In this document: positions 49,577 to 51,032 of the stretch, piece after piece
Layout of the letters: every line of letters begins with the position of its first letter
Numbering within the stretch: the first letter of the stretch is position 1
DNA from: Candidatus Hydrogenedentota bacterium
GTDB taxonomy: Bacteria > Hydrogenedentota > Hydrogenedentia > Hydrogenedentales > SLHB01
Assembly (NCBI GenBank): GCA_045863335.1
Contig: BTVY01000038.1
Location: 1-64,000 of the forward strand
Direction: 5' to 3'
Length of the DNA stretch: 64,000 nt
Notes under the pieces: generated by a model
Seen by the model: only the letters and a program-made list of their open reading frames with translations
What the model was told of the DNA's origin: nothing
The model's database searches: none
Made by a program: the position numbers and the translations under genes

Positions 49577-50470
49577 TTAGGGGTGCGAGTGCCCGTGGGA
49601 GAGTTCGTGGAAAATGAACCCGCCTTCATTTACCGGGAACGGCGCGCCCGCCGGGCCCTGATAACGAAGGAATTGCACGTGTCCATCCATGTATAACACG
49701 TTGCAGCCGCCGGGCACATGATTGAAGTGGCTCGCTTCATCGCCGGAGATTTCGTCCCACATCACCGGAATCGTGGACTGAGACTGAGCGCTGCCAGCCG
49801 GATTATTGATGTCGGTCACGAAGAAACGTTCGACGCCTTCCCGTAGCCGCGGAACACTCTCCTGCCCGCCGATTGGCGTATCGAATTCCCAATCCGCATC
49901 TGCCAGCTCGACCTCGCCCATCTCGATGGCTTCGGCCAATTCCTCTCCCTCGATTTCCAGTTGTTCGAGGTCGCCGTTCGCCGTGATTTCGGCTTCCAGG
50001 GTTTGCGGGCTTATGGCCCAAGGCAGATACACGTAGGGATGCTCGGTAATCTCGCAGGGTTCCACGATGCCGTTATTCGAGAACCCGACGACTTCCTCCC
50101 AATTGGTCGATAAGGTATTACCTTGATCCCACAATTCCAGCGCGGTGCTCCCCGAAGGAGAACTTGGGCATACCAGCACGTTCCAGTCGGTGAGATATTC
50201 CGGGTAGACCGCCACGGCGTCAAAAATCGTGTTGAACGCCTGGATTTCGCTCGCGCAATTCAACGTCTTCATAGCGGGGAACTTCTCCCCGGCGCTCTCG
50301 TTGCTGTACATTTTGAAAACCAGCCCCAACTGTTTCAAATTGTTCTGGCAACTGGCCCTCCGTGCGGCCTCGCGAGCGCGGGCCAACGCGGGCAGCAGTA
50401 TCGCGGCGAGTATCCCGATGATGGCAATTACGACAAGTAGCTCGATAAGTGTAAAGCCTTTATGGCGCAT
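49577..50470 (-). CDS. Prepilin-type N-terminal cleavage/methylation protein, DUF1559 / H-X9-DG family, with His-rich C-terminus
   Basis: [59 protein letters not shown]; ends [14 protein letters not shown] 9 nt before ATG 50470. Confidence 0.93.
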
Positions 50471-50479
50471 GATTTGTGT

Positions 50480-50599
50480 CTCCATTGGCGCACACGTCCG
50501 TGGCGCGGAATACGTGCAGGGAAATGGCAGGCAACTCGCCTGCAATTCTGATGCACGCCGTTCGGAAAAAGGGATATCAGGACGTGTGAATTTGCGGAG
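50480..50599 (-). promoter_or_regulatory. Predicted SD-sequestering leader RNA structure between the uORF 3' end and the pilin-like gene
   Basis: Minus-strand CUCCG (50599-50595) can pair with UGGAG (50484-50480); CACACGUCC (50588-50580) pairs with GGACGUGUG (50499-50491); nested CGUGCA/UGCACG and GCAGGC/GCCUGC stems. Confidence 0.65.
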
Positions 50600-50933
50600 G
50601 ACCGCGGAGGGACTCGGGGGTCCAGGAGACTTCGGACCAGAAGAACGCGTAGTCAGGAAGGGTTTGCCGGTACGCGGTGTCGCACGACGGCGTTTCCACC
50701 GTTTCCCACTGCGGCGTGAGTACCAAGCTCTGAACGAGTACGCAGAGTCCGCACGGTTGCTGCGTGTCAGGCCGTAGAGGGTCATGGGAAGAGCCCTGCG
50801 CGGGGAGCCCATGGGCCTCGCAGAACCCCAGAAGTGGAATCAGGCCGTGGAACTCCGCACACGCGAACAGCGCCAAGGCGACGTATACGCCCAGCAAATA
50901 GCGCTTACGGTTTCTGATTTGAGTCGGGAACAT
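50577..50933 (-). CDS. DUF2946/CruR-like upstream ORF, putative RGPP ribosome-arrest peptide
   Basis: Basic + hydrophobic N-terminus, His residues, CGLC, and LRGPP 5 residues before the stop; consensus promoter upstream. Confidence 0.75.
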
Positions 50934-51003
50934 TGTCTTTCTCTACCGCACCCTTATCGCGTGACGGGCCGCCCAGACTCGTCGGAGCAGACTAATGTTC
51001 TTG

Positions 51004-51032
51004 AGTCTAGCGGACTTCCGCCGGGCTGTCAA
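51004..51032 (-). promoter_or_regulatory. sigma70 promoter driving the uORF-pilin transcript
   Basis: Minus strand TTGACA (51032-51027)-N17-TAGACT (51009-51004), about 70 nt upstream of ATG 50933. Confidence 0.72.

Follow-up and report, generated by a model that had tools for sequence, protein, structure and literature searches.

Leader peptides of the DUF2946 family are known to control the next gene in cis through ribosome stalling. The prototype is CruR (Bp2923) of Bordetella pertussis, encoded upstream of the TonB-dependent transporter gene bfrG (Roy et al. 2022, PMC9426467), which carries an export signal, a CxxC motif and a RAPP core a few residues before its stop codon. In vitro, ribosomes translating CruR are arrested when two Pro codons occupy their P and A sites (PMC12992588); copper relieves this stall and Rho ends transcription in the spacer of 162 nucleotides (nt) that follows (PMC9426467). 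The distance between CxxC and Arg is conserved in over 2000 family members, changing it impairs regulation, and long spacers have been reported for cruR homologues (PMC9426467). CutF of Rhodobacter capsulatus, encoded upstream of cutO (Ozturk et al. 2023, PMC9973294), is a second DUF2946-family leader acting in cis on the next gene; it possesses a Sec signal, binds metal through Cys and His residues and stalls at a C-terminal proline motif, which is a PPP-type repeat that depends on elongation factor P (EF-P). In this case, the stall is brought about by copper and opens a stem-loop that covers the ribosome-binding site of cutO (PMC9973294; bioRxiv 10.1101/2025.02.05.636593). A third group of arrest peptides, namely ApdA, ApdP and SecM (PMC10951233, PMC10987492, PMC12992588), possesses a C-terminal R-A/G-P-P core and an N-terminal localisation signal and controls downstream genes too, but is found upstream of sec and yidC genes, has no CxxC at a fixed distance and does not belong to DUF2946. 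Among RAPP-like cores, RGPP was found to be the strongest, RDPP and RSPP being partly permissive (2025 study, PMC12992588). In the present study, a window of 64,000 nt, representing positions 1 to 64,000 of contig BTVY01000038.1 of a Candidatus Hydrogenedentota bacterium, was found to contain an open reading frame (ORF) of 118 amino acids (aa) that precedes a prepilin-type DUF1559 gene. This ORF is probably not a conventional protein gene but a leader of the DUF2946 (CruR/CutF) family that acts in cis and senses metal by means of an arrest peptide, a reading to which a probability of about 0.72 was assigned. All coordinates are those of the whole window (Table 1), and the promoter, leader, spacer, target gene and hairpin are all located on the minus strand.

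A first line of evidence consists of the leader ORF itself. The initial annotation had read from the DNA a basic and hydrophobic N-terminus (its function as export signal being judged by hydropathy only), His residues, a CGLC motif and LRGPP five residues before the stop codon, and all of these were retrieved. The comparison with the DUF2946 profile (PF11162) that had been proposed along with it gave 24.2 bits, which exceeds the gathering score of 23.7 bits (E 5.9e-5), and covered profile positions 23-117 of 117, the alignment thus including the RAPP-containing end of the profile. Among 11 aligned homologues, with identities down to 21%, residues H29, C61, C64, L66, L72, P106, R110, P112 and P113 were invariant, and 10 of these 11 homologues matched DUF2946 at E ≤ 0.1, with 1.2e-6 as best value. 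The region between CxxC and RxPP was poorly conserved except for its length; the 49 residues from C61 to R110 equal the distance between C90 and R139 of Bp2923 (PMC9426467). Compared with two orthologues of the same genus, the leader showed 15 synonymous versus four nonsynonymous codon changes and 16 versus eight, respectively, dominated by third positions. Judged from these comparisons, the ORF is genuinely coding and belongs to DUF2946. The reading of RGPP as an arrest motif is backed by the literature, given both the rank of this core and the stalling of CruR (PMC12992588). With CruR, the leader shares Pfam family, export signal, CxxC, a RAPP-type core close to the C-terminus, the 49-residue spacing, the position as first gene of its unit and a long spacer (106 nt versus 162 nt). 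It differs from CruR in its core, which is RGPP instead of RAPP, in its target, which is a DUF1559 prepilin-like protein instead of a TonB-dependent transporter, in its strongly structured spacer and in its phylum. The features of CutF mentioned above, namely the Sec signal, the Cys/His metal site and the C-terminal proline stall motif, are matched as well, except that the PPP-type repeat and the short spacer with a stem-loop hiding the ribosome-binding site are found in CutF only, whereas the spacer in the window measures about 100 nt and is predicted to hide the ribosome-binding site no more than shuffled sequences do. In contrast to the target in the window, CutO is a copper-induced oxidase that serves detoxification.

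A second line of evidence is the constancy of the pairing between leader and DUF1559 gene. A leader profile gave matches at E ≤ 0.001 in 35 of the 135 Hydrogenedentota genomes. The loci retrieved via the leader contained 40 distinct homologues, 38 of which were followed within 800 nt by a gene with a prepilin motif; the remaining two were located before a Zrg-like ATP-binding cassette (ABC) system and on a contig that was too short, respectively. The spacing between CxxC and R amounted to 47-49 residues in 39 of these 40 homologues, and their arrest cores were RGPP (25), RAPP (8), RDPP (6) and RSPP (1). The survey of relatives for CxxC...R[AG]PP ORFs before DUF1559 genes suggested by the initial annotation, widened to R[AGDS]PP, recovered the pairing in 38 of 40 cases within the phylum and in other phyla besides; that annotation had made its proposal dependent on conservation of the ORF and of its RGPP and CxxC motifs, and R110, P112, P113, C61 and C64 turned out to be invariant in all 11 aligned homologues. 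Searches with a single leader sequence reached few relatives (three proteins and seven representatives); the search with 61 matches had 43 at E ≤ 1, which were mostly noise, and its 10 best places were used (E ≤ 4.1e-4, own genome included). Tandem DUF2946-like RGPP leaders before a single DUF1559 gene were encountered in two genomes (L131, 710-2808, G090; L139, 934-2880, G095), separated by 108 and 132 nt, respectively, a doubling of the arrest leader that recalls tandem riboswitches.

The genome to which the window belongs (G000) contained one copy when searched with PF11162 and with the leader protein. The notion of a single copy proved too narrow, as a motif scan yielded two further, divergent leader-DUF1559 units (on contigs C19 and C55; Table 1). 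Their leaders possess RSPP and RDPP cores, CAFC at the right distance, sub-threshold DUF2946 scores (12.5 and 18.3 bits) and a common subfamily signature (ALIPGLCAT...CAFC.LAKG), and their targets end in HELAHGHGGHH and FHRSNHMLNGTAMMHM. No metal genes were present among the neighbours of these two units. Altogether, 272 frames of at most 260 codons in this genome end in R[AGDS]PP; in six of them a CxxC occurs 44-53 residues before the R, and three of these six precede DUF1559 genes.

The target gene encodes a protein with a prepilin cleavage and methylation motif, an N-terminal SCQNNLKQ block and a C-terminal H-X9-DG motif, all of which it shares with the DUF1559 / H-X9-DG family; it matched N_methyl (36.8 bits), SBP_bac_10/DUF1559 (53.8 bits) and H-X9-DG (TIGR04294; 28.4 bits, cut-off 19). 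Prepilin-like DUF1559 proteins (N_methyl + SBP_bac_10) are expanded in Planctomycetes, with 74 copies in Rhodopirellula baltica and 91 in Tuwongella immobilis (PMC8567305, PMC2754498). What the clade of the target adds to this family is the DUF2946 leader and a C-terminal tail of the form PVNEGGxxxHExxH(xHxH). Indeed, P279, N281, G284 and H288 were invariant in 26 leader-linked orthologues, with E289 and H292 nearly so, resulting in the tail consensus PVNEGGLILHExxHGHxH, which in some orthologues extends to HGHGHGHGH. The association between tail and leader was assessed on 105 distinct DUF1559 genes in the loci, 98 of which had enough upstream sequence; among the latter, 24 had both leader and HExxH tail, nine the leader only, three the tail only and 62 neither. 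In a less biased set, retrieved by similarity to the target alone and freed of duplicates (n = 76), these numbers were 5, 6, 3 and 62, corresponding to an odds ratio of 17, an effect that is overstated because relatives are not independent. Two of the three genes with a tail only (L053 and L069) have an upstream frame with RGPP near the stop and without CxxC, one of them displaying CxxxxC; judging from these frames, conservation appears to be stronger for the arrest core than for the metal site. In a quick maximum-likelihood tree, 31 of 34 leader-linked genes fell into one clade of 42 rows (support of 80 in the Shimodaira-Hasegawa-like approximate likelihood-ratio test), indicating that most DUF1559 genes linked to a leader group together and share the conserved tail. 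The own genome contained 43 prepilin-motif genes and at least 33 DUF1559-type genes, most of the paralogues being without the added tail and the leader; a leader was found before both genes with an HE..H tail and before three of the four prepilin-motif genes whose final 30 residues include three or more His.

Structural comparisons of the target yielded a pilin-type N-terminal helix but no convincing fold match. The AlphaFold2 model, which is of middling confidence (predicted local distance difference test 71.5; predicted template modelling score 0.66), displayed a long N-terminal helix (residues 8-56) and beta strands, and placed H288-E289 in a short C-terminal helix. Foldseek returned nothing at E ≤ 0.001 for this model, the best entry being a pilin at E 1.1; VIA-align against pilins gave Z values of 2.0-2.5 at best, and sequence matches to solved pilins were restricted to the N-terminal 60 residues or so. 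None of the solved structures searched by sequence, Foldseek and VIA-align matched the head domain, and the ESM Atlas search returned only unnamed Hydrogenedentota clusters.

Table 1. Features of the leader-DUF1559 unit in the window and of related units elsewhere
Feature	Location	Strand	Remarks
Sigma-70-like promoter of the two-gene unit (predicted)	51004..51032	-	TTGACA (51032-51027), 17 nt, TAGACT (51009-51004); 10/12 matches
Leader ORF, 118 aa, DUF2946 (CruR/CutF-type) arrest-peptide candidate	50577..50933	-	Stop codon 50577-50579
Hydrophobic signal anchor or signal peptide, residues 12-26	50856..50900	-	Follows basic RNRKR; Kyte-Doolittle 15-residue mean 2.21
His29 of leader	50847-50849	-	Invariant in 11/11 aligned homologues
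CGLC (Cys61-Cys64), presumed metal-binding motif	50742..50753	-	Invariant in 11/11 aligned homologues
RGPP arrest core (candidate), Arg110-Pro113	50595..50606	-	Five residues before stop; R, P, P invariant in 11/11
Structured spacer, 106 nt	50471..50576	-	Presumed site of attenuation or mRNA remodelling
GGAG	50480-50483	-	9 nt before target ATG
Target: prepilin-type DUF1559 / H-X9-DG protein, 297 aa	49577..50470	-	ATG at 50470
Target C-terminal tail, His288-Pro297, HExxHxHxH	49580..49609	-	H288 invariant in 26 leader-linked orthologues
Terminator-like hairpin	49535..49568	-	Stem of 14 base pairs, without U tract; begins 8 nt past target stop
Extra leader-DUF1559 unit, own genome (G000)	Contig C19, 73378-74761 (locus L259, 379-1762)		Motif scan
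Extra leader-DUF1559 unit, own genome (G000)	Contig C55, 12822-14332 (locus L260, 223-1733)		Motif scan
RGPP leader, then ABC ATPase, FtsX/MacB, DUF3299	L138, 628-4988 (G020, contig C16)		CxxC 48 residues before R
Leader, DUF1559, MerC-family gene, leader, DUF1559	L129, 1039-4618 (G015, contig C2)		All on one strand; MerC family PF03203, 88.6 bits

Thirdly, the pairing is found in other phyla. A degenerate DNA pattern, in which RGPP codons are joined to the prepilin motif, retrieved at least 119 stretches from public genomes, at least 45 of which had RGPP within 12 codons of the stop and a CxxC 44-53 residues before the R; these figures are lower bounds, because the pattern allows a single Arg codon and a single distance window. 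According to their labels, these stretches belong to Planctomycetota (at least 26, mostly Phycisphaerae), Hydrogenedentota (at least four, next to at least six Hydrogenedentota-like sequences under other labels), Victivallales (at least three), Armatimonadota (at least two), Verrucomicrobia, Candidatus Zipacnadia and Candidatus Sumerlaeota (at least one each), with at least one unlabelled. A Pfam scan was carried out on 33 of these leaders, leaving out 10 of Hydrogenedentota type and two frames that were cut short; among the matches listed, DUF2946 was found at E ≤ 0.1 in 21 of the 33, with five over the cut-off. 'A few' CruR homologues in Planctomycetes were mentioned by Roy et al. (PMC9426467). 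The targets following RGPP/CxxC leaders in Phycisphaerae and Planctomycetales (L140-L256; e.g., L144, L155, L187 and L192) are shorter (about 240-280 aa) and end in another conserved tail, '...N.FDP.VAR', without His. As this tail is different and His-less, the leader is shared with these groups but the target clade is not. Several public metagenome-assembled genomes titled Nitrospiraceae, Nitrospirales and Bathyarchaeia carry DUF1559 genes that are 40-55% identical to the gene in the window, some of them with a leader (among others L055, L058, L067, L078, L088-L090, L100 and L109); their taxonomic labels look wrong.

As to the signal, metal is the obvious candidate because of the His-rich tail, the Zrg-like alternative target and the MerC neighbour. 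The sole non-pilin target of the leader family is a set consisting of an ABC_tran ATPase, an FtsX/MacB permease and a DUF3299 protein (L138; Table 1). This set resembles ZrgC, ZrgB and ZrgE, a likeness based on domain composition only; DUF3299 corresponds to ZrgE of the Vibrio zinc importer ZrgABCDE, which is under the control of Zur (PMC9817125). In another genome (L129; Table 1), a gene of a heavy-metal transporter family is embedded between two leader-DUF1559 units. DUF2946 genes have also been reported before zinc systems in Caulobacter (PMC4176598), and Ozturk et al. proposed that Cys-containing leaders are linked to copper and His-only leaders to nickel or cobalt (PMC9973294). The metal sensed may be copper or zinc, with about equal chances. 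The target, being a pilin-like envelope protein, probably binds the same metal through its HExxHxHxH tail, and its role is leaned towards metal capture under scarcity.

By homology with CruR and CutF, a stall, a metal response and control of the downstream gene may be expected at this locus. Transcription would begin at the promoter at 51032-51004, after which the leader would be translated and its N-terminal signal anchor would bring the nascent chain to the Sec translocon. The ribosome would stall on Arg110-Gly-Pro112-Pro113 with Pro112 in the P site and Pro113 in the A site (codons 50598-50600 and 50595-50597, respectively), a position expected from toeprinting of CruR (PMC12992588). During such a stall, the CxxC located 49 residues back would be just out of the exit tunnel, together with His29 and a His-containing loop; binding of metal to these Cys and His residues would alter the duration of the stall, and expression of the DUF1559 gene located 106 nt downstream would be set by whether the ribosome is stalled or released. 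Two ways of reading out the stall can be envisaged. In a CruR-like route, a stall without metal would shield the transcript from Rho, and metal would free the ribosome, with transcription ending in the spacer. In a CutF-like route, the stall would melt structure covering the ribosome-binding site. The spacers of most leader family members measure about 100 nt and are strongly structured (median of -0.28 kcal/mol per nt). In the minimum-energy fold of the window locus, the last leader codons pair with a segment just upstream of the GGAG (z -2.1). The own genome encodes Rho (697 bits), and an Rfam scan of positions 49300-51200 returned no family, its two rows being chance ones with E > 0.7.

Several observations speak against a metal-sensing leader or against one of its readouts. 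The DUF2946 score of the leader is a mere 0.5 bit over the cut-off. The known members of the family head copper and other metal genes, whereas no function is known for DUF1559 as target family. Apart from its His tail, nothing in the target points to metal; this tail is absent from nine of the 33 leader-linked genes and from the Phycisphaerae targets of similar leaders, while three tailed genes are without a CxxC leader. RNAalifold on six same-genus spacers revealed no conserved or alignable structure (seven weak pairs, -1.66 kcal/mol). Furthermore, the region at -14..-5 of the target genes was not more paired than in shuffled sequences (median unpaired probability of 0.38 versus 0.39 for 29 distinct pairs), accessibility being below the shuffle mean in 16 of the 29. 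Masking a stalled ribosome changed the median to 0.46 and masking a terminating one to 0.43; with a stalled ribosome, accessibility rose by more than 0.1 in 14 of the 29 pairs and decreased in three, a terminating ribosome giving about the same. In the locus of the window itself, masking was without effect (0.39 throughout). Finally, the spacers are weakly C-rich (C > G in 20 of 29; median C of 0.28 and G of 0.25), which is atypical of a Rho loading site. Since the ribosome-binding site is shielded no more than in shuffled sequences and masking does not discriminate between the models, the CutF-like route has no in silico support here. The long spacer and the import-type alternative targets make us lean towards CruR-like attenuation, a choice that sequence alone does not decide; if the leader is a metal sensor, termination of the unstalled transcript by Rho in the spacer has about an even chance, and melting of structure over the ribosome-binding site a considerably smaller one.

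Other explanations of the ORF were considered too. It could be a monitor of secretion or assembly of the SecM/ApdA/ApdP type, with the pulling force of Sec-dependent export freeing the stall and the expression of the pilin-like protein being tuned to the state of export or of the pseudopilus, without any metal. An N-terminal export signal and a C-terminal RGPP are indeed what the leader has in common with RAPP-type monitoring substrates (PMC10987492, PMC12992588), and its target is itself an exported prepilin-type protein. The known monitors, however, precede secA, secDF or yidC and not substrates (PMC10987492, PMC12992588), whereas the gene following the leader in the window is a prepilin-type DUF1559 gene. 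Moreover, the invariant CxxC and His29, the spacing of 47-49 residues and the DUF2946 match, all hallmarks of metal sensing, are left unexplained by a monitor, and the His-rich target tails as well as the Zrg-like and MerC neighbours point to metal. A secretion monitor is considered unlikely; of the two functions that the initial annotation had left side by side, metal scavenging or export monitoring, the latter is the weaker. Alternatively, the product of the ORF could be a small, stable metalloprotein of the membrane acting in trans, for instance as chaperone or partner of the DUF1559 protein; translation would then merely be slowed down by RGPP and the adjacency would reflect a protein partnership. 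Conservation of the whole ORF length, which takes in another hydrophobic stretch behind CxxC of sufficient length for a membrane helix in some homologues, and strict adjacency to the target fit such a protein. Yet, RGPP is reported to be avoided more than any other four-residue sequence in many bacterial proteomes and to be EF-P-resistant (PMC12992588), CruR and CutF act in cis only and are undetectable as proteins (PMC9426467; PMC9973294), and the interval between CxxC and RxPP is poorly conserved save for length, making a metalloprotein acting in trans very unlikely. A chance open frame in GC-rich DNA with coincidental motifs, for which the many overlapping spurious ORFs in the window and the marginal Pfam score could plead, is refuted by the mostly synonymous substitutions, the six residues invariant across genera, the same neighbour in 38 of 40 homologues and the rarity of own-genome R[AGDS]PP frames with the right CxxC distance (merely six of 272, three of which precede DUF1559 genes).

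The remainder of the locus is in line with a two-gene unit. The layout described in the initial annotation (promoter, 118-aa ORF, 106-nt gap, DUF1559 gene and hairpin) was found at the positions given there. Promoter-like sites in the region 49200-51300 numbered three, against 0.9 ± 1.1 in shuffled sequences, and both hexamers of the promoter were unchanged in all three same-genus genomes, with varying flanks. A promoter scan of the spacer (50471-50576) gave no promoter-like site; with such a site upstream and none in the spacer, the leader ORF is the first gene of the unit and the target gene the next on the same strand. The hairpin behind the target gene has a predicted energy of -44.7 kcal/mol (z -3.0), equalled by one of 200 shuffles. 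Two contigs from RNA libraries, which are kept as contigs, may contain DNA, cannot demonstrate a transcript and give neither a transcript end nor a transcript level, cover the leader: a metatranscriptome contig of 205 nt (X20) is identical to positions 50678-50882, inside the leader, and a contig of 887 nt (X2) covers positions 50269-51150 with 13 differences, bridging leader, spacer and target start. The latter may be DNA or stem from another strain, because its sequence continues past the promoter into the divergent gene. The neighbouring genes are ordinary, with a divergent PMT_2 glycosyltransferase on one side and an S41 peptidase, RNase PH and a Ham1-family gene downstream. Downstream of the PMT_2 glycosyltransferase gene, and unrelated to the leader unit, the plus strand encodes an HD-GYP-like protein of 424 aa with an HD_5/HD domain (52868-54142; 70.3 bits).

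In the main texts searched on DUF1559, on H-X9-DG/SBP_bac_10/PF07596 and on RAPP arrest peptides, the pairing of a leader with a DUF1559 or pilin gene is not discussed, and supplementary tables may list it. The terms 'DUF1559', 'prepilin' and 'pilin' do not occur in the main texts of PMC12992588 and PMC10987492, and in PMC9973294 'pilin' is confined to a figure legend, where it names a class of signal peptides. The claim of the initial annotation that the pairing was undescribed thus stands for the main texts of these papers, beyond which it is not established.

The leader is a known kind of switch and its target class is unstudied. The DUF1559 prepilin-like proteins are among the most expanded families without known function, and a conserved leader, whose family counts CruR and CutF as its two studied members, offers a direct experimental handle on one of their clades, as whatever relieves or induces the stall names its signal. 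The pairing also adds a further class to the known targets of DUF2946 leaders, which had been transporters, chaperones and oxidases, and places such leaders in phyla for which no more than 'a few' were on record (Roy et al.). It is tentatively suggested, as a possibility that is still doubtful, that the leader-linked DUF1559 clade consists of metal-capturing pseudopilins, the tail of which would scavenge copper or zinc in the envelope or at the cell surface and the synthesis of which would be switched under scarcity by a nascent-chain sensor. If true, this would be the first role assigned to the large DUF1559/H-X9-DG family of Planctomycetota, Hydrogenedentota and their neighbours. It would further mean that DUF2946 leaders have been recruited repeatedly to pilin-like genes in at least five phyla, and that type IV pilin-like fibres join the metal-acquisition machinery.

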